DNA of 64,000 nucleotides from Acidobacteriota bacterium (GTDB lineage: Bacteria > Acidobacteriota > UBA6911 > RPQK01 > JAJDTT01), in contig CBDCJH010000002.1 of assembly GCA_965217775.1 (NCBI GenBank), positions 4,384,001 through 4,448,000 of the forward strand, given 5' to 3'. A model generated the notes under the pieces. That model had not been told where the DNA came from, searched no databases, and was given only the letters and a program-made list of their open reading frames with translations. The position numbers and the translations under genes were made by a program. Of this stretch, positions 873 to 58,531 are shown one piece after another. Numbering within the stretch: the first letter of the stretch is position 1; each line of letters begins with the position of its first letter.

Positions 873-1709
873 TTACAAGCGATTCCAGCGCGCTCCCCGA
901 CCATGGCCCGTAGGTGTGATCAAACCTCGAGCCTTTAGAGTGGCGAGGTCTTCACGCAGTCGCCGCTTGTTGATTTGCGGTCCCAACTCGGCGAGGATCT
1001 CGCGCAGTGCCATGGCGCGATCCGCCTGATCGATTAGCGCAAGGATCTCCCGTTGCCGCTCGGTCAAAAGGGTCACCTTGACACGATCCGTTTGCGAGAG
1101 GGAAGCGGACCGTCACGCACCCTCCAGCGTTCTCGATCTCGGGAAGTGGCAGACCGGCAGAGGTCGTCAGCTCCGCCATCTTGAGAGTCCCGCGTCCCCA
1201 CTCCTCAATGATGCCTCACCGATAGAACGTACGGGCGATCAGTGGGTTCCACGGCAAGGATTCGTGCGGTGCGAACAGCTTTTCCGGGGTCAACCCGAAA
1301 TGCAAGGTGCCGGACGACGTCACCTCCAGGCGGTCATCAAGGCCAAGGTGGTGTTCCCAACCCGACGATACGCTATGCCTCGGTAAACGTACGGCCTTGC
1401 AGACCCGCGGCTTACGCGCACCACGACCACCTCACGGTCCCCCGCTATGGGAACCCGCTCGATCTCTGGAAAGGACGGCGGATCGATCCTTTGGATCTCG
1501 CCGCTCACGCCCTCAATCGTCCGGTCGCTCACTTGCTGTCCAGCCATGTCTCCATTGGGTGTGACACCGAACAGCACATACCCACCGCGTTGGTTGAGCA
1601 TGGCGCATACGGTTCGGGCTGCCTCACGGCGCTCTCCCGTCGTGCTCTTGAACTCCAGAGTCTGTGACTCGTGGGTGGAGACCAGCGCCGCAAGTCGCTC
1701 AGACGTCAT
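873..1709 (-). pseudogene. AlbA_2/Schlafen-like ATP-binding transcriptional regulator (with HATPase_c_4 and wHTH), fragmented
   Basis: N-terminal ESQTLEFKS...AMLNQRGGYVLFGV. Further pieces in other frames (GLPLPEIEN; HTH ending GHGRGARW). Confidence 0.7.
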
Positions 1710-2150
1710 CGGGCTTCCTCGACCACACGCATGGGATTATGGCGTATATCCACAAAATGGCTCTCATCTGCAACCATTCGTTCAGTGCGTCGAAGACCTT
1801 TTTGGAAGTGATCGAGTTCCTGCTCATTCCCTGATACGCACGTGAGTTTCATATACCCAAGTCTGCACCGACGATGTGTCAGCCGGGTAAATCCGTCTCG
1901 GGGCGCTCGAAGGCGCCAACTCCGAGCACAGGAAGCAGCGACAGCATTTCGGCCAGATAGCCGTCCATCACAGCTCGATCCGGGTCCGCCAACATGGGGC
2001 GTTGCGGATTTCTGAATCACCAATGGACGCGGATCGGTCATGTCCCCCGCCAAGGATGCGCGCCGGAAGATCCTCCGCCATCCGGTCAACCGCGACGATT
2101 CCTACCAGGAGCACTGCAGCACTCAAGAGATCCCGACTCGGCTTCCCACC

Positions 2151-2339
2151 CTATGACAAATTATTTTCCTTGCGTCGGCTCGCCAAACGCCGCAGAACCG
2201 GGTCCGTATATCGGTGCGCATGAAGCCAGTGATCAAGCTCGTCATGGGTCTTCCCCACGATCTCCGCGCTGACGCGATCCCGAATCTCCCGCATGGTCTT
2301 TACGCCATCGAATCCCCTCTTTTTCATTTTCTCAATCAT
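2151..2339 (-). CDS. Small putative antitoxin following a PIN-toxin C-terminal remnant
   Basis: FDGVKTMREIRDRVS. The overlapping upstream remnant reads ...VEIRTPREI, a typical PIN toxin C-terminus. Confidence 0.45.
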   Translation of the reverse strand: MIEKMKKRGFDGVKTMREIRDRVSAEIVGKTHDELDHWLHAHRYTDPVLRRLASRRKENNLS

Positions 2340-2451
2340 CGCATATCTCCCTCGGCGTCCGGATCTCGACTCCTGCCACCGTGGCAACGGCGATATGCAG
2401 GCCGTCGGCCAACCCTCGTGAGCTGAGCGTAAGCAAAGCGAGAATTGCGGT

Positions 2452-3688
2452 CTAGCGATTCCAACGACGCTTGAGGTAGAGGGGCACAAGCGCCAACAAC
2501 ACGGCAACGCTCAGATGAATCCATGGTTCGATTTTCCTACTGTTGCCGCTATTCCTCACAATCAGCATGCGAACTTGACGTCTCGCTTGGACTAGCTCCA
2601 GGCCCAGGGTGCTCTTGATGGCATGAGCAATCGAAGAATGATCTTCAGGATCGAACTGTAGCTTGATGCGATAAGAACCATAGAGTCTTGTCTCATCGAG
2701 CACCGGCCGATCCAGCCTTGATGCGACCACGTGCGCAAGACTCTCGACGCTGGAGGCCTCGAGTTCTCCTCTGGACGCACGGGAGTAACTCCCCTGGACC
2801 GCCGGTAGAGGCTCGAGCTTCGTCTCAGGCGATTTCCGCAATACGTAAGCGTCCACCATCCGGTTTTCCCAGACCGCTTCGATTCCCAGGGCGGCCGAGA
2901 CGGCCTGTTGCATCATGGGTGCCAAGAGATCCTGTCTGCCAGCCGTGTTGATCACGACATCGTACTTCTGTTTGGGCAACTCGGCCTCGATCAAGAATTG
3001 GCCTGGTCGAGCATTGAATGCGACTGGGAGAATATGTTCCGGAAGAAAGGAAATGATTTTGATCTCGCTGTGGCTGCGGCTCATTCCGCTACGATCACTC
3101 GTGGACGGGCGGATGAGTACTTGAAAAACCGGTTCCGGCCCGTCATCTCCCACCGCGAGGAGGGTGCCCGTGGACTTCTCCGGGACATCGGGCCGCCGCC
3201 CGGCCAAAAGATCGAGCAGAACCGTCTTGGTCACGTGATGGGGTTGTGTGACCGCTTGGATGACACCCTCCTTGTCGACCAGCACGGTGGCCGGAATGCC
3301 CATCACGGCATAGTCCCGGAATACGGATCGATCAAGATCGAGCCCAACCCAACCGGCGATGGGTTGAGAATCCAAGAAGGGTTCAATGATGCTCTCTTCC
3401 TCGTCCGATATGGAGAGGAACCGAACCGGCTGATCCGAGAATTCCTCCGCTAGTTCGTTGAAGTGGGGAATGGCTCCGATAACACGGCCCGCACCAAGTG
3501 GCCCAGAACTCCAGGACCAGCGCCTGACCCTTGAGGGCTTTCCAGCTCAAATCATTGTCGACCGGACCCTTCAGCATCGTATCGATGGCGAGTTCTGGAG
3601 CTCGGTCGCCGATCTTCGGTGGCGCACCGAGCACCAAGGCCGCAGTCATCATTATGTTGGCGAGCGTCCCGATCGAGATTCTTGGCAT
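2452..3688 (-). pseudogene. Redoxin (TlpA-like) plus TIGR03435-family protein, frameshifted near 3482
   Basis: EFWATWCGPC continues in another frame as IGAIPHFNELAEEF. The C-terminus has LDRPVLDETRLYGSY...LGLEL, as in TIGR03435. Confidence 0.7.
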
Positions 3689-19586: not shown

Positions 19587-19809
19587 ATTCGGCGCGCTTA
19601 CGTATTGTCGCAGCGAGAGACGCCAAAGGGAGGCACTCCAAATCGTGGCTGCGAAAGAGGGTTTCAGCTGCTCCAATCATCAGGGCGGAGAATGGTCCGT
19701 ATTCACACTTGTACTCCTGCGTTCAGGAGTTGCCCGAAAGACGCAAGGCACTGGCGGCGAAAAAGGGCGATGGAGTAAAGGAGGTAACGGGGCCCCTTCT
19801 CCCTGGCTA

Positions 19810-21282
19810 TCAGGCAATCAGCTCGTGCACGACGTTTCCGTAGACGTCTGTCAAACGAAAATCCCGGCTGTTGTGGCGGAAGGTGAGCCGTTCATGATCC
19901 AGGCCCAGCAGGTGAAGAATCGTGGCGTGGAGATCGTGATGCGAGACGCGGTCCTTGATGGCGTGCATGCCAAGATCGTCGGTGGCGCCGTGGGTGATCC
20001 CCGGCTTGACGCCGCCGCCCGCCATCCACATGGAGAAGCCGTAGTGGTGATGGCCGCGGCCGAGGGATTCCTCCGTACGAGCCTCCTCCATCGGAGTGCG
20101 GCCGAACTCGGTGGCCCAAACGACGAGCGTCTCGTCCAGCAGCCCGCGTGACTTCAGGTCCATGATGAGGGCCGTGACGCCTTGATCGGTGCGCGCCGCG
20201 TTTGTGCGGTGGTTGTCGATGAGCCCGCCGCGATTTCCGTGCGCGTCCCATCGCCGCCCGTGGGCGCCGTCGAGAATCTCCACGAAACGGACCCCGCTCT
20301 CCACCAGCCGTCTCGCCGTCAGGCACTTCCTCCCGAATTCGGTGTCGCCGTAGAGCGCCTTCACCGACTTCGGTTCGTTTCGGATATCGAAGAGTTGCGG
20401 CGCTTCCATCTGCATGCGAAACGCCGTCTCGAATGCGGCGATACGCGCGTCGAGCTCGGGCTGAGTGGCGTGCATGCCGCGGTGGAGGCGATTCAACTTC
20501 CGCACCAGATCCAACTGCTTGCTCTGCTGGCCTCGGGTGAGAAATTTCGGCGCCGTGATGTGCGGCACGGGCGGTGTCCCGGCCTTGACGTCCGCCAACG
20601 TGGCCTGGTGGATTCCCGGGAGGAATCCGGCATCGTAAAGCGCACGCCCGCCGGACGGAAGGCCGTCCTTCATCACCACGAATCCCGGCATGTTCCGATT
20701 CTCTGTCCCCAGCCCGTAGGTTACCCAGGAGCCAAGACTAGGGTGGCCCTGTATGGAATAACCCGTGTGCATGAGGATCTGGCCGGTGGAGTGAATCGCC
20801 GAATCGGTGTGCATCGAGTTGATGAACGCGATTTCGTCGACCACTTTCGTCAGGTTCGGGAAGATCTCGCTGACCCAGGCGCCGCTCTGGCCGTAGCGCT
20901 TGAAGGAGAACACCGGCGGAACGATACGCGTGTTGGTGTAGTCCTTCTCCGGGTTCAGGCCTTCCAGGTCTTCCTTGGAGAAGATCTCTCGCGCCAATTT
21001 TCCGGCGTATTTGTTCAGAAGCGGCTTGTGGTCGAAGGTCTCAAGCTGGCTTGCGCCGCCGACCATGAACAGCAAGATGACGTTCTTCGCCTTGGGAGCG
21101 AAGTGTGGCTGTCTGGGTGCGAGTGGCTCGCTGAGGTCGGCCGCGGGTACGGCCGGCGCACCGATTGCCGTCTCGTCCGTGAGCAGGCTGGCCAGAGCGA
21201 TGCCGCCCAGGCCGAGTTCCTTGAGGAACCCACGGCGATCCCAACCGACCGGTGGAGTTCCGTAGTTTGCGTCAGTCAACAT
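19810..21282 (-). CDS. DUF1501 domain protein (Tat signal)
   Basis: RRGFLKE Tat motif, AKNVILLFMVGGASQLETFD, WATEFGRTP, GRGHHH. Confidence 0.9.
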   Translation of the reverse strand: MLTDANYGTPPVGWDRRGFLKELGLGGIALASLLTDETAIGAPAVPAADLSEPLAPRQPHFAPKAKNVILLFMVGGASQLETFDHKPLLNKYAGKLAREIFSKEDLEGLNPEKDYTNTRIVPPVFSFKRYGQSGAWVSEIFPNLTKVVDEIAFINSMHTDSAIHSTGQILMHTGYSIQGHPSLGSWVTYGLGTENRNMPGFVVMKDGLPSGGRALYDAGFLPGIHQATLADVKAGTPPVPHITAPKFLTRGQQSKQLDLVRKLNRLHRGMHATQPELDARIAAFETAFRMQMEAPQLFDIRNEPKSVKALYGDTEFGRKCLTARRLVESGVRFVEILDGAHGRRWDAHGNRGGLIDNHRTNAARTDQGVTALIMDLKSRGLLDETLVVWATEFGRTPMEEARTEESLGRGHHHYGFSMWMAGGGVKPGITHGATDDLGMHAIKDRVSHHDLHATILHLLGLDHERLTFRHNSRDFRLTDVYGNVVHELIA

Positions 21283-21376
21283 GGGTGAACCCGCTCAGGC
21301 TCGTGAGGGTGTAACGGTATTGTACAGGAGAGGGGAGGTGGCTGTCCCACTCTCAGTCCCCTTCTCACACGGAAGA

Positions 21377-21416
21377 CGGCGACAAGAAAGTCGCCGGTCC
21401 CAGTCGGCGGCAAGAA
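21377..21416. repeat. REP-like hairpins GGCGACAAGAAAGTCGCC, the second interrupted by the intron
   Basis: Same family seen at ~22583, 51194, 58479-58530, 43353 and 55645. Confidence 0.75.
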
Positions 21417-22059
21417 GTCGCGGTAGGGACGCCGGTTGCCCAGCGCCCCCCGCGCAGATCCGTGCGTTCCCGTTAAGGCACACGGCTCCTACCTCAGGTA
21501 GTGACGGCCGGCCGCGACGCCCACCGTATCCGACCCCCGCCTGTGTCACGCCAACCCGGCTCTGAGTCCGGTCCGTACTTTGGTGAGCCGAAATTCCCTT
21601 TGGTTCCACCCCTTCGCTCCACGGACTCCGCAGAGAGTTCCCCCTCCTTGTTCGCCCGCTTCATCACTACTATGGATGAATCCGATTGCTTCCTCTCTCC
21701 CCTCGTGGGGTACGGGTTCCTCCTTTCCCACAAGGCCCCGGCTCTCGCCGGGGTGAGAGCAAGCCCTCCCAGGTCCCGACACCAGATGTACGTACGTGCA
21801 TGGGTTCTTTGACACCGCAGAGCCCGGCTGCCCCTCACCCTGGCGGTCCAGCCGGTGTTGCCTTCGACCGCGACTACAGCCTCGGCACTTCCGATCAGGG
21901 AGCTTTCGATGCTCAATAGCCTGCCCATACGCACCGCTACCGACGCTTCGCCGACACCCTCACGGGTGCCCACGCTCGGCTCGCGGAGAAACGTGGATGG
22001 TTAGTCCTTCGTTTCAGCGGACTTTCACCGCCTATCTTGTGCCAGTTAGCCTGGCGCAC
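21417..22059 (-). mobile_element. ORF-less group II intron, copy 1 (643 nt)
   Basis: Minus strand starts GTGCGCC and ends with domain V GAGCCGTGTGCCTTAACGGGAACGCACGGATC and domain VI ...CCCTACCGCGAC. No RT ORF. Confidence 0.85.
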
Positions 22060-22191
22060 AGTCGCCCCTCCTGGCAAGAAAGTCGGCGCTCCCGTGCGAT
22101 GCCGCGCAGGGTCGTGAGGTTGTGGCAATGGTGTACAAGGCGCGGAGAGAGGGGGCGAGTGTCCCCTTCTCCAGATAAGTCTCAATGTGAA

Positions 22192-22479
22192 TCAGATCAG
22201 GTCGTCGACGTCGACGCTGAGCGCCTCGGCGAGCGCGGCCAAGGTTCGAGCCGAGCCGGTGCGGACGCCCCTCTCGATTTGCGACAGATAGAGTGGATTG
22301 ATCCCAGCGGCACCGGCGAGCTGCTTCTGGGTCATGCCGCGATGGTCCCGGTATACCCTGACGGCGTTCTCTCCCGCCAGAAGGCGATCCGCTAACTTGA
22401 TTGGAAAAGACTTTCCCCCCACGGACTTGGCGTGATCGTAAAGCTCTTCGTCGGTTAGGCCTGCGGTGGCATCCAACAT
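22192..22479 (-). CDS. XRE-family antitoxin-like regulator, probably 5'-truncated
   Basis: VRVYRDHRGMTQKQLAGAAGI...LSQIERG. Bracketed by palindromes at 22148 and 22502. Confidence 0.75.
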   Translation of the reverse strand: MLDATAGLTDEELYDHAKSVGGKSFPIKLADRLLAGENAVRVYRDHRGMTQKQLAGAAGINPLYLSQIERGVRTGSARTLAALAEALSVDVDDLI

Positions 22480-22622
22480 CGTTAAGCGAGTGTACCCCTG
22501 AAAGATAGTGACTGTCCCCTTCTCGCCCTTCTCGCGCGCGCGTGTCCCCTACTCGCACGCTTCTCACTTCTCACGCGGAAGACGGCGACAAGAAAGTCGC
22601 CGGTCCCAGTCGGCGGCAAGAA

Positions 22623-23265
22623 GTCGCGGTAGGGACGCCGGTTGCCCAGCGCCCCCCGCGCAGATCCGTGCGTTCCCGTTAAGGCACACGGCTCCTACCT
22701 CAGGTAGTGACGGCCGGCCGCGACGCCCGCCGTATCCGACCCCCGCCTGTGTCACGCCAACCCGGCTCTGAGTCCGGTCCGTACTTTGGTGAGCCGAAAT
22801 TCCCTTTGGTTCCACCCCTTCGCTCCACGGACTCCGCAGAGAGTTCCCCCTCCTTGTTCGCCCGCTTCATCACTACTATGGATGAATCCGATTGCTTCCT
22901 CTCTCCCCTCGTGGGGTACGGGTTCCTCCTTTCCCACAAGGCCCCGGCTCTCGCCGGGGTGAGAGCAAGCCCTCCCAGGTCCCGACACCAGATGTACGTA
23001 CGTGCATGGGTTCTTTGACACCGCAGAGCCCGGCTGCCCCTCACCCTGGCGGTCCAGCCGGTGTTGCCTTCGACCGCGACTACAGCCTCGGCACTTCCGA
23101 TCAGGGAGCTTTCGATGCTCAATAGCCTGCCCATACGCACCGCTGCCGACGCTTCGCCGACACCCTCACGGGTGCCCACGCACGGCTCGCGGAGAAACGT
23201 GGATGGTTAGTCCTTCGTTTCAGCGGACTTTCACCGCCTATCTTGTGCCAGTTAGCCTGGCGCAC
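22623..23265 (-). mobile_element. ORF-less group II intron, copy 2 (643 nt)
   Basis: Near-identical to 21417-22059, with about 3 substitutions seen by eye. Confidence 0.85.
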
Positions 23266-23294
23266 AGTCGCCGCTCCCAGCGGGCGGCACCTGA

Positions 23295-24776
23295 TCAGGC
23301 GATGATGTCGTGGACGACGTTGCCGTAGACGTCGGTCAGGCGGAAGTCGCGGCTGTTGTGGCGGTAGGTGAGCCGTTCGTGATCCAGGCCCAGGAGGTGG
23401 AGGATGGTGGCGTGGAGATCGTGATGCGAGACGCGGTTCTTGATGGCGTGCATGCCGAGTTCGTCGGTGGCGCCATAGGTGATCCCCCGCTTGACGCCGC
23501 CGCCCGCCATCCACATGGTGAAGCCGTAATGGTGATGGCTGCGGCCAAGGGTTGTTTTGGTCAGTGACCTGTCCGCCTCCTCAAACGGCGTGCGGCCGAA
23601 CTCGGTGGCCCAGACGACGAGAGTCTCGTCCAGCAGGCCGCGTGACTTCAGGTCGATGATGAGCGCGGTGATGCCCTGATCGGTGCGCGCCGCGTTGGTG
23701 CGGTGGTTCTTGATGAGCCCGCCGCGGTTGCCGTGGGCGTCCCATTGCCGCCCGTGGGCGCCGTCGAGAATCTCCACGAAACGGACTCCGCTCTCCACCA
23801 TCCGTCTCGCCATCAGGCACTTCCTTCCGAAGTCGGTGTCGCCGTAGAGCGCCTTCACCGAGTCCGACTCGTTCCGGAAATCGAAGAGCCCCGGCGCTTC
23901 CATCTGCATGCGAAACGCCGTTTCGAAGGCAGCGATGCGGGCGTCGAGCTCGGGCTGCGTTGGATGTATCCCGCGGTGGAGGCGATTCAACTTCCGCAAC
24001 AGATTCAACTGCTGGCGATGCTGCCCCGGGTTCAGAAACGACGGCGCCTTGATGTGCGGCACCGGCGGATTTCCGGGCGTGACGTCCGCCAGCGTGGCCT
24101 GGTGGTAACCGGGGAGGAATCCGGAATCGTAAAGCGCGCGCCCACCGTCCGACCGTCCGTCCGTCATCACCACGAATCCCGGCATGTTCCGGTTTTCCGT
24201 CCCCAGCCCGTAGGTCACCCAGGAACCAAGACTGGGGTGGCCCTGCCTGGAATAGCCCGTGTGCATGAGGATCTGACCGGGGCCGTGAATCGGCACATCG
24301 GCATACATCGATTTGATGAATGTGATGTCGTCGACCACCTTCGTCAGGTGCGGGAAGATCTCGCTGACCCAAGCGCCGCTCTGGCCATAGCGCTCGAAAG
24401 AGAACACCGGCGGCACGATTTTCGAGCTGTAGAACGTCTTTGACGGATTCAGGCCGTCCAGATCCTCTTTAGGGAAGATGTCCTTGGCCTCTTTTCCGCC
24501 GTACTTTTTCAGAAGCGGCTTGTGATCGAACGTCTCAATCTGGCTTGCGCCACCGACCATGAACAGGAAGATGACGTTCCTCGCCTTGGGAGTGAAGTGA
24601 GGCTGCCGGGGCGCAAGTGGATCGCTGAGATCAACCGCCGGCACGGCCCCTGCGCCGCTCGCCTTCGGGTCCGCGACCAGGCTGGCCAGCGCGATGCTGC
24701 CCAGGCCGAGTTCCTTGAGAAACCCACGGCGGTCCGGTCCAACCGGTCCCGCTCCGTAGGCTGCGTCAGTGGACAT
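23295..24776 (-). CDS. DUF1501 domain protein
   Basis: Paralogue of 19810-21282, overlapping the DUF1553 gene. Confidence 0.9.
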   Translation of the reverse strand: MSTDAAYGAGPVGPDRRGFLKELGLGSIALASLVADPKASGAGAVPAVDLSDPLAPRQPHFTPKARNVIFLFMVGGASQIETFDHKPLLKKYGGKEAKDIFPKEDLDGLNPSKTFYSSKIVPPVFSFERYGQSGAWVSEIFPHLTKVVDDITFIKSMYADVPIHGPGQILMHTGYSRQGHPSLGSWVTYGLGTENRNMPGFVVMTDGRSDGGRALYDSGFLPGYHQATLADVTPGNPPVPHIKAPSFLNPGQHRQQLNLLRKLNRLHRGIHPTQPELDARIAAFETAFRMQMEAPGLFDFRNESDSVKALYGDTDFGRKCLMARRMVESGVRFVEILDGAHGRQWDAHGNRGGLIKNHRTNAARTDQGITALIIDLKSRGLLDETLVVWATEFGRTPFEEADRSLTKTTLGRSHHHYGFTMWMAGGGVKRGITYGATDELGMHAIKNRVSHHDLHATILHLLGLDHERLTYRHNSRDFRLTDVYGNVVHDIIA

Positions 24777-43413: not shown

Positions 43414-43440
43414 GAGGGCACCCACAAGGGGTGCCCCTAC
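43414..43440 (-). repeat. GTAG-type REP palindrome
   Basis: Reverse complement is GTAGGGGCACCCCTTGTGGGTGCCCTC. Sister copy at 55542-55568, related copy near 61192-61227. Confidence 0.75.
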
Positions 43441-50022: not shown

Positions 50023-50378
50023 TGGTGGAGGCGGTGGGAATCGAACCCACGTCCGGAAGCCTTCGGCCGCAAACTCTACATGCTTATCCAGTTTCCCGAT
50101 TCAACCCAACTGGCATGGAAACTGGAAAAGCCGCCAGCCGGATCGTCCCTCATCAGTGTCTCGGTTCCCCGCCGAGGGAGGGGCGAGGCCCCGACAAGCC
50201 CGCTGAAATGACGCCCCGAACCTCCCTGCGGGCCTGAAGGCCGGAACGACCGCGTTAATTACGCGGCGAGTGCGAACTCATCGTTGGCACTTGTTGTTTT
50301 TGCCACGGATTTACGAGGTGGTGGCACCTCGACATGCATCTACGACCTCAACTACTCCCGTCGAATCCAGTCGCCCCC
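50023..50378 (-). ncRNA. ssrA: tmRNA
   Basis: 5' GGGGGCGACTGGATTCGAC, 3' GGTTCGATTCCCACCGCCTCCACCA, tag ORF ANDEFALAA*. Confidence 0.95.
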
Positions 50379-51180: not shown

Positions 51181-51290
51181 GGAGCTTCTCGGAGCGGCGA
51201 CTTTCTTGTCGCCGACCAGGGGGGTCTAGGGGGGACGGAGTCCCCACTCCGCGTAGGGTCTTCCAACCGGGCGAATTGAAGAGTGGGCGA

Positions 51291-58289: not shown

Positions 58290-58531
58290 TTTTTCAACCT
58301 CCCTTTCTAACTAAGACGGCAAAATAGGCCGATTTGTTCCAACTAAATTCGTTTCGAGTTGAATTCTTGCTTTTTAGGGGTTCCCCCAATAGGAGGGGCG
58401 ACTTGGAAGGGCGACTTGCCAACCGCGCCTGTGGCGATGCGTCCGCTCGCTGGTCGGTGGATTGGTACACTGGAGTTCGGCGGCAAGAAAGCCGCCGGTC
58501 CCAGTGGGCGACAAGAATGTCGCCCCTCCTG

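Follow-up and report, generated by a model that had tools for sequence, protein, structure and literature searches.

ORF-less group II introns in REP-like hairpins of an Acidobacteriota genome and the intron family to which they belong

A stretch of 64,000 nt from an Acidobacteriota genome (the window: contig CBDCJH010000002.1, positions 4,384,001 to 4,448,000) contains two nearly identical group II introns, here called copies A and B, that carry no open reading frame (ORF) and interrupt a palindromic repeat resembling the repetitive extragenic palindromic (REP) sequences. The locus raises the question of how two introns that encode no protein came to occupy the same place in a small hairpin, and to what kind of element they belong. 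The answer proposed here is that A and B are very probably non-autonomous members of an endonuclease-less, IIB-like intron lineage that retrohomes into a REP-like hairpin. It is drawn from comparisons within this genome (G000) and with relatives in the same genus (labelled G002-G007).

Both introns lie on the minus strand, are 643 nt long and differ at 3 of the 643 positions (84, 121 and 537), i.e. they are 99.5% identical. They start with GUGCGCC (GTGCGCC in the DNA, at 22059 in A and 23265 in B) and share the terminal sequence CCUACCGCGAC, the 3' ends ...CCTACCGCGAC being located at 21417 and 22623, respectively. The GUGCG 5' end and the ...GAC 3' end, present in A, B and all 10 full-length copies described below, fit the GUGYG/AY boundary rule. 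The Rfam model RF02005 (group-II-D1D4-6, gathering score 49 bits) is matched on the minus strand at 21803-22025 in A (160.7 bits) and at 23009-23231 in B (168.6 bits); the model is covered fully (1-225) in both, and relatives score 160.7-174.6 bits. The sole long sense-strand frame of A and B (159 aa) has no Pfam match, and the reverse transcriptase (RT)/maturase ORF of domain IV is deleted. In both cases the 5' exon ends with ...GGCGACT and the 3' exon begins with TTCTTGCCGCC; joining the two restores the palindrome. An earlier reading of the window, made from the sequence alone (the sequence-only reading), had proposed two 643-nt introns without an RT ORF, inserted in a REP palindrome after ...GGCGACT, and both statements agree with these matches, boundaries and exons. 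The parts of the two copies, including the exon-binding sites (EBS1-3) and the corresponding intron-binding sites (IBS) in the exons, are as follows.

21417-22059, minus strand: ORF-less group II intron copy A, with 5' GUGCG at 22059 and 3' ...GAC at 21417
22623-23265, minus strand: ORF-less group II intron copy B, with 3 differences from A
21898-21903 (A) and 23104-23109 (B), minus strand: EBS2 (GCUCCC), in a 13-nt internal loop of domain I, pairing with GGAG(C) 5' of the hairpin
21870-21875 (A) and 23076-23081 (B), minus strand: EBS1 (AGUCGC), in a terminal loop, pairing with the 5' arm plus one base (GCGACU)
21810 (A) and 23016 (B), minus strand: EBS3, an unpaired A at intron position 250, pairing with the T at +1
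21512-21513 (A) and 22718-22719 (B), minus strand: domain IV deletion junction, where ~1270 nt of RT ORF are absent in comparison with the 1917-nt copies
21457-21488 (A) and 22663-22694 (B), minus strand: domain V, 32 nt
21424 (A) and 22630 (B), minus strand: presumed branch point, the A that bulges from domain VI, 7 nt away from the 3' splice site
22060-22073, minus strand: 5' exon of A, IBS2-n-IBS1 (aGGAGgGGCGACT), comprising the flank and the arm on the 5' side of the interrupted REP
21406-21416, minus strand: 3' exon of A, with the remainder of the interrupted REP (TTCTT loop and GCCGCC 3' arm)
23266-23279, minus strand: 5' exon of B (GGGAGCGGCGACT), directly after the stop codon of the DUF1501 gene 23295-24776
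22612-22622, minus strand: 3' exon of B, with the remainder of its interrupted REP

The two copies are not alone in the genome. When the whole assembly was searched at the DNA level, 27 matches were obtained, which resolve into 16 elements (C2 denotes a contig).

Full-length copies: 10, of 1917 nt, with 0-29 differences in 1918 columns; three are identical
ORF-less copies: 4, namely A, B, C2:3223516-3224157 and C2:1903834-1904588
Internally deleted copy: 1
5' fragment: 1, of 67 nt

The sequence-only reading had staked its case on other copies also lying in REPs. By site, 14 of the 16 elements are in one repeat family, REP1, at the same nucleotide, one is in a second family, REP2, and one is ectopic. 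Among the full-length copies nine of 10 share the REP1 position, and the tenth is the ectopic one; it is recent and identical to two others, and at its site the 5' exon matches, but the 3' exon is unrelated and a hairpin is lacking. The ORF-less copy C2:3223516 is inserted in REP2, between GTAGGGGCACCC and CTTGTGGGTGCCC. All four ORF-less copies show one domain IV deletion of ~1270 nt with an identical junction, and they are ~85% identical to the full-length ribozyme.

The RT of the full-length copies matches TIGR04416 with 355 bits (cut-off 300 bits), and its sole Pfam hit is RVT_1; an endonuclease domain and PF08388 (GIIM) are both absent from its Pfam hits. Nine of the ten RT frames are open and one is split. 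No other group II RT family was found in this genome at E <= 1e-30. A cognate RT-encoding intron, which the sequence-only reading had advised looking for, exists in 10 copies. The accompanying suggestion of a non-autonomous element specialised on REPs needs one amendment: the specialisation stands, but it extends to the whole lineage, in which the autonomous copies share it with the ORF-less form.

Some details of individual copies were also recorded. In the full-length copy C2:4693319-4695235 (L012 136-1695) the RT frame crosses domains V and VI and ends with a TGA 4 nt before the 3' splice site; the 3' end reads CGTGAC in this copy and CGCGAC in the ORF-less copies. A Shine-Dalgarno-like AAGGAG directly follows the position of the deletion junction, and for this reason the real RT start is probably well downstream of the first ATG. 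Two of the ORF-less copies are old: C2:3223516 has a GAGCG 5' end, and C2:1903834 contains a 116-nt insertion. The latter is an AT-rich element with ~22-nt terminal inverted repeats, similar to a miniature inverted-repeat transposable element (MITE), that lies at C2:1903927-1904042 in a domain I stem-loop; it has 5 copies in the genome (82-100% identity), and the same insertion is present in the orthologous intron of G007.

REP1, the main target, is a 28-nt REP-like hairpin unit in which the insertion point falls between GGAGnGGCGRCT and TTCTTGYCGCC. The genome has 182 copies, counted as units at two or fewer mismatches from the pattern, and their consensus is tgGGAGcGGCGaCTTTCTTGtCGCCgAct. 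The stem covaries, with GAC/GTC in 60 copies, GGC/GCC in 47 and a mixed stem in 2. REP1 also forms arrays, i.e. 34 adjacent pairs are spaced 28 nt apart. A degenerate REP pattern has 5 matches in the window and 0 in 100 shuffles, and REP1 is present in 8 of the 8 other genus genomes searched. REP2 is a second palindromic repeat, unrelated to REP1, with 175 copies in the genome. The copies in the window are listed below; they include the intact members that the sequence-only reading had placed near 51194 and 58479, the second of which has a neighbour.

21378-21395, minus strand: intact REP1 hairpin, 28 nt downstream of the split unit of A (tandem)
22584-22601, minus strand: intact REP1 hairpin adjoining copy B, 28 nt downstream
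51196-51213, plus strand: unoccupied REP1 hairpin between convergent ORFs
58479-58496 and 58507-58524, minus strand: two unoccupied REP1 hairpins 28 nt apart
43416-43436, minus strand: REP2 copy (GGGCACCCCTTGTGGGTGCCC), of the family that the retargeted ORF-less sub-lineage enters at another place in the genome
55546-55566, plus strand: further REP2 copy

Comparison with ORFs was made for the five REP1 copies of the window only; three are clearly between ORFs, and the two at 58479-58524 are overlapped by mechanically called ORFs. We note that the label REP is used here in a descriptive sense, because no RAYT gene adjoins either repeat: the genome has 3 Y1_Tnp matches, none with REP1 or REP2 within ~1.5 kb. 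The flanks of REP2 are conserved past the hairpin in many copies (5' cgtag; 3' tcttcggtccaaa..ggagcaagacg), which suggests that REP2 is part of a longer repeated unit with sub-families. A tmRNA gene (50023-50378, minus strand; RF00023, 190 bits) is located ~800 nt from an unoccupied REP1 hairpin.

The exon-binding loops of domain I were placed from the Rfam covariance-model alignment, because a single-sequence minimum free energy fold of the 643 nt (z -5.7) did not reproduce the domain I architecture and was dropped. In A and B the sequence AGUCGC is complementary to GCGACU, in which the last five bases of the 5' arm are followed by the first of the loop; GCUCCC is complementary to GGGAGC, the conserved flank 5' of the hairpin. 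The REP2-inserted copy has other sequences at both places, EBS1 GGGUGC and EBS2 CCUACG, and these match its own 5' exon (GCACCC and CGUAGG).

The census of pairings covers 45 copies in 5 species. Of 270 EBS1 positions 267 are paired (246 of them Watson-Crick); for EBS2 the figure is 224 of 270, with the weakness at the two outer positions, and EBS3 pairs in 44 of the 45 copies. There are 11 EBS combinations and seven EBS1 variants (AGUCGC, AGUCCC, AAUCGC, GGGUGC, GGUCGC, AACCCC and GGAUGC), each of which matches its own target arm, i.e. a hairpin or, in G004, the start of a gene. On average EBS1 forms 5.9 of 6 pairs with sites of its own class and 4.6 of 6 with those of other classes. EBS2 covaries with IBS2 over three target classes (GCUCCN/NGGAGC, CCUACG/CGUAGG and CAUGCA/UGCAUG). 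EBS3 was assigned to position 250, the single domain I column that is complementary to +1 in 9 of 9 aligned variants (A-T, G-C and U-A). The sequence-only reading had offered the AGTCGC at 21870-21875, in a short stem-loop, as a candidate EBS1, and this assignment is borne out by its terminal-loop position in the Rfam alignment and by the census.

A different nucleotide, the A in GGGC-A-GGCUAU, was the first candidate for EBS3. It was rejected as S3223516 and the G004 copies share the change at this place and differ at +1. Covariation within the RF02005 structure was also tabulated for 9 close sequences: of 62 pairs 40 are invariant, 9 show one-sided and 6 two-sided changes and 7 non-standard pairs only, the sequences being too alike for this to add much.

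Judged by these pairings, recognition is of the IIB type, with EBS2, EBS1 and EBS3. The scheme of the IIC introns, i.e. a short EBS1, no EBS2 and insertion downstream of a hairpin, was rejected: here insertion is inside the hairpin, after the 5' arm and 0-1 base, EBS1 has 6 nt, and a covarying EBS2 of 6 nt is present. For these reasons the element was not filed as IIC, and by the same sequence features the intron is not IIC despite the fact that its nearest solved RTs are. In this comparison with solved structures the closest are the IIC enzymes 7uim (E 1e-47) and 6ar1 (E 1.6e-46), followed by other solved group II RTs, LtrA (5g2x) and the maturase RT of 6me0, which we take to be the TeI4h RT, at E 1.2e-30. 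As regards a class marker for the RT (A, D, E, F or unclassified), the accessible part of Toro & Martinez-Abarca 2013 (PMC3552965) provided none that was usable.

The mechanism that we propose can be put in simple terms. EBS2 would read the conserved GGAG directly 5' of the hairpin, EBS1 would read the end of the 5' arm (its last five bases) together with the first base of the loop, and EBS3 the loop base after that, so that the three pairings together would land the intron at the junction of 5' arm and loop. Insertion would be into the lagging-strand template at the replication fork, with a nascent lagging strand as the primer. The REP would offer about a hundred near-identical, mostly extragenic landing sites. 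The RT ORF would have been lost once from domain IV, giving the 643-nt form, and this form would then have spread within and between species of the genus by means of an RT acting in trans, for which the likely supplier in G000 is the nine intact 1917-nt copies.

One may ask if the hairpin structure itself is needed, as with IIC introns at terminators and attC sites, sequence match alone being insufficient. In one version of this idea, folding of the hairpin on the template of the lagging strand would bring the nascent strand to a halt, and this strand would then prime cDNA synthesis. Several observations agree with a need for the structure. Two unrelated REP families are entered at the equivalent junction of 5' arm and loop. 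In a census of 46 insertion sites (five species, G.U allowed; the sites are not independent, as orthologues and identical flanks are included) the arms match at 6/6 positions in 35, at 5/6 in 10 and at 4/6 in 1, whereas a 6/6 match is found at 5.5% of 20,000 random genome positions. The nearest solved RTs, as said, are IIC, and a bias to the lagging-strand template is present (see below). Moreover, the 5'-exon motif GGAGNNGCGRCT is found at 184 sites of the genome, of which the occupied ones comprise 12 hairpin and 1 non-hairpin site and the empty ones 114 hairpin and 57 non-hairpin sites. The resulting occupancy (12/126 against 1/58) is a trend towards hairpins that we estimate, without formal calculation, as not significant, and that is confounded, since the non-hairpin motif sites look mostly coding (judged by sequence, with no ORF check) and insertions in genes are selected against. 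Other points run counter to a structural requirement. To pair with the 5' arm, EBS1 must displace the 3' arm, which means that the hairpin has to open; the recent ectopic copy has neither a hairpin nor a matching 3' exon at its site; three copies in G004 lie at the start of a gene; and REPs may simply be the commonest multi-copy neutral sequences. We consider the requirement somewhat unlikely. Given the displaced 3' arm and the ectopic and G004 copies outside REPs, sequence pairing is taken as the mechanism that the data show and a structural role of the hairpin as a possibility.

The orientation of the copies relative to replication bears on the priming step. Cumulative GC skew places the origin of contig C2 near 5.0 Mb and the terminus near 1.65 Mb. 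With respect to these, the sense strand is on the lagging-strand template in 13 of 14 intron copies; the corresponding figure for unoccupied REP1 units is 103 of 177 (Fisher p 0.0098). If A and B are taken once and the non-REP1 copies dropped, the more cautious count is 10 of 11 (p 0.03). Such a bias to the lagging-strand template is on record for class C and for several further classes that lack the endonuclease (Miura 2022, PMC8919778). It fits priming by the nascent lagging strand, though co-orientation with transcription could contribute to the bias.

The relatives show how far the family extends. The RT family has 10 copies in G002 (95-97% amino-acid identity), 1 in G005 and 3 in G004. 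Nine G002 copies with both ends and the RT copy of G005 are all in hairpin loops, the occupied stems being GGCGGC, GGCGAC, GGGGAC, GGTGAC or GGGGGT. The three G004 copies are at the start of a repeated gene and not in a REP, and EBS1, EBS2 and EBS3 have all changed to match. The ORF-less form is present at whole length in 7 copies in G006, 9 in G005 (and one truncated) and 2 in G007. The ORF-less copies have one deletion junction in common. With the ORF-deleted full-length sequence as root of the tree, their lineage is monophyletic, comprising four species and the present one, and a REP2-targeting clade within it spans four species. In other words, the 643-nt form is, by its sequence relationships, a single deletion lineage found in five species of the genus.

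It might be argued that the ORF-less copies are relics incapable of movement, spread either by recombination or along with the REP arrays as these moved. They have no RT ORF, A and B have blemishes in domains V and I (described below), and two of the four ORF-less copies in this genome are old and damaged: the two copies in G007 share flanks and defects with C2:3223516 (GAGCG) and C2:1903834 (116-nt insertion), which are therefore old, inherited insertions. But passive scattering predicts no agreement between EBS1 and the occupied REP arm, and such agreement is seen for the EBS1 variants AGTCCC, AATCGC, GGTCGC and GGGTGC. Likewise, 22 ORF-less copies have precise boundaries at the same REP position. 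Orthologous sites without an intron exist in sister species. Finally, there are copies that are 100% identical and have different, unrelated flanks, namely L084 and L085 as well as L086 and L087 in G006, and L092, L093 and L095 in G005. This is the signature of ORF-less copies that moved recently without an ORF of their own, and we regard the relic explanation as highly improbable. Identical ORF-less copies in different REPs thus argue for movement in trans.

Retrohoming of a trans-mobilised form is our preferred reading also for A and B, but several observations weigh against it, and these begin with the partner. Despite its 7 ORF-less copies, no cognate RT was found in G006. The best RT match there (E 2.8e-34) belongs to an intron of another Rfam family, RF02003. 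The partner of the ORF-less copies in G006 may have been lost recently, may have been missed, or may be replaced through cross-mobilisation. As to the RF02003 intron itself, it lies at ~1160-3000 of locus L050 (G006:C1:5840343-5844842), scores 91.8 bits and has an intact 463-aa ORF; it is ~300 nt upstream of a 23S rRNA gene (large subunit match from position 3294), and its type is the only RT-bearing intron type found in G006.

The second group of such observations concerns the ribozyme. In this genome domain V stays below the Rfam gathering score (28.8-37.5 against 40 bits). In A (21417-21490) and B (22623-22696) RF00029, the model for domains V/VI, gives 28.8 bits (E 0.0042), in the full-length copies 37.5 bits and in the other ORF-less copies 35.2-36.9 bits; in the relatives the threshold is passed, with 41.0 bits in G004 and 40.9 bits in G005. 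The 32-nt domain V of all family members has a 4-bp upper helix and a UAAC loop, and a G is opposite an A at the usual G.U position of the catalytic triad. Its lower helix carries a double compensatory change between the ORF-less and the full-length form (UG/CA vs GA/UC). A and B have a C-to-A change in the upper helix that is seen in 0 of 43 other copies examined (2 copies were not recovered), and A has an extra mismatch in a domain I helix. Because of these changes A and B may be inactive today.

Thirdly, the public data gave no informative exon-exon joint for A or B. The four runs consist of metagenome contigs from mixed relatives, and cover in RNA runs is no demonstration of transcription or splicing. 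No contig in these runs bridges the exon-exon junction with useful flank; there is one joint 21416>23266 only, with 24 nt on the shorter side, which could be any REP. The strand bias is a further weak point, as it comes from 14 non-independent copies and could also result from selection for co-transcription. As side observations, one loose end, from run X4, resembles an A site that has no intron, and in one metatranscriptome contig (run X12, at 23265/23266) the 3' end of a related variant, minus its last C, is joined to a 5' GUGCG. The latter could be an intron RNA circle or a tandem copy, though it is a single contig and DNA carry-over is possible.

The last point is the resemblance of A and B to each other. 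They might go back to a single retrohoming event followed by duplication of the DNA, through recombination of REP arrays or of local modules. The flank of ~55 bp that the sequence-only reading described as shared by A and B measures 56 nt, is on the 3' side and is 98% identical; it adds to the observations against two separate insertions. About 20 nt of it are outside REP units and are found nowhere else in this genome. The introns themselves are 99.5% identical, the C-to-A change in domain V is unique to them, and they lie 1.2 kb apart amid DUF1501 paralogues and repeated module borders. On the other hand, the 5' flanks are unrelated past the REP half. The non-REP part of the 3' flank (CACRCGGAAGAC beside the array) is present at orthologous sites that have no intron, for A in G006 and for B in G002 and G004, so the similarity of the flanks at least partly predates the introns; the same 56 nt are also matched at 98% in G003. 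On balance we consider a later duplication possible, if doubtful. For the lineage as a whole it is of no consequence, because identical ORF-less copies lie in different REPs in two sister species.

The surroundings of A and B are repetitive in their own right. The introns are flanked by two paralogous DUF1501 genes and a small HTH_3 gene, all on the strand of the introns; one paralogue precedes the introns and the other follows them. Over their 3' parts (19809-20380 and 23294-23874) the DUF1501 genes are 89-91% identical, and the similarity stops at the stop codons. A third repeat of ~25 nt around the palindrome GGGGACTGTCCCC (GAGAGGAGGGGACTGTCCCCTTCTC) is found at 21330-21365, 22140-22175 and 22505-22560, and also at the loci L073-L076; it marks the borders of intergenic modules between DUF1501 paralogues. 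Between these borders the content varies with the species, i.e. there are small genes in G002, G004 and G005 that are absent in G000.

A more far-reaching picture can be drawn from the same material. The lineage might be a structure-guided specialist on REP hairpins outside class IIC, in which the hairpin on the lagging-strand template both marks the site and stalls the primer, and in which EBS1 tracks the evolution of the stems (seven specificities, two REP families). The RT-less form would then resemble a short interspersed nuclear element (SINE) that can outlive its partner; in G006, where it has multiplied recently and the only group II RT present is a heterologous one, it would be cross-mobilised between intron families. 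We find this combination unlikely, and retain the proposal of a non-autonomous, IIB-like intron that finds the REP by its three pairings.

What such a lineage means can be seen from the way in which group II introns are thought to survive, i.e. through harmless landing sites such as terminators, attC sites, insertion sequences (IS) and other introns. A lineage tuned to REPs adds the most abundant class of bacterial intergenic repeat to these refuges. Its 45 insertions, with seven EBS1 specificities, form a natural series from which all three RNA-DNA pairings can be read, and the lineage is an example of a non-autonomous intron that persists across a genus, including one species in which no partner RT was found. 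The relation of autonomous and non-autonomous forms is a dynamic of the kind invoked for the origin of spliceosomal introns. The lineage also allows one to ask whether DNA hairpins aid endonuclease-less introns outside class IIC, and for annotation it accounts for the 643-nt "gaps" within REP arrays. All in all it is a clear and data-rich case with open edges, rather than a new type of element.

Among known systems RmInt1 of Sinorhizobium meliloti (class D) comes close in several respects. It is IIB-like, has no endonuclease domain, uses EBS1, EBS2 and EBS3, homes into a multi-copy IS element and prefers the orientation in which the nascent lagging strand can prime. The target of RmInt1 is an insertion sequence, however, and the one described here is a palindromic repeat.

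The published systems are compared below on the basis of the accessible parts of the cited papers. IIC introns at hairpins are already known (Gomes 2025, PMC12584367). The terminator and attC introns of this class share with the present family an RT without endonuclease domain, hairpin targets that here, too, seem mostly intergenic, and the lagging-template bias; the solved RTs nearest to the present one are of this class. They insert downstream of the hairpin with a short EBS-IBS pairing; the present introns are inside the loop, with a 6-bp EBS1 pairing on the 5' arm and a covarying 6-nt EBS2, and their ribozyme without ORF has ~640 nt. In Halorhodospira halochloris, fragments of class E IIB introns are located beside attC-like hairpins (Sonbol & Siam 2021, PMC7923331). 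Here the likeness is in non-IIC, endonuclease-less introns situated by a DNA secondary structure for which a structural role in targeting was suggested. Those fragments are 5'-truncated and lie downstream of the hairpin in a cassette array, and the accessible part of the paper reports no copy series or EBS covariation. In the literature searched, which left most subscription journals outside, we found no intron lineage that homes into REPs at a fixed position, tracks the stems via EBS1 or switches between REP families.

ORF-less introns that are mobilised by the RT of a relative, and whose EBS specificity has diverged, are known from Thermosynechococcus elongatus (Mohr, Ghanem & Lambowitz 2010, PMC2882425). 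As here, specificity has diverged into several families and insertion favours non-essential repeated DNA. In the part of that paper drawn upon, the targets are other introns, IS elements and genes rather than REP hairpins, the RTs are of another class and the introns are thermophilic. In the present genus the non-autonomous lineage spans several species, in one of which no cognate RT was found. REPs, finally, have been described as landing sites for insertion sequences, and a group II intron of P. putida KT2440 is listed as REP-associated in 2 of 9 copies (Tobes & Pareja 2006, PMC1525189), the sole precedent met in the literature searched. The elements of that study are DNA transposons, and for the intron the association is weak (22%), with no pairing rule given in the accessible part. 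In the genome studied here 14 of 16 copies are in one REP family, and all of these are at one nucleotide position.

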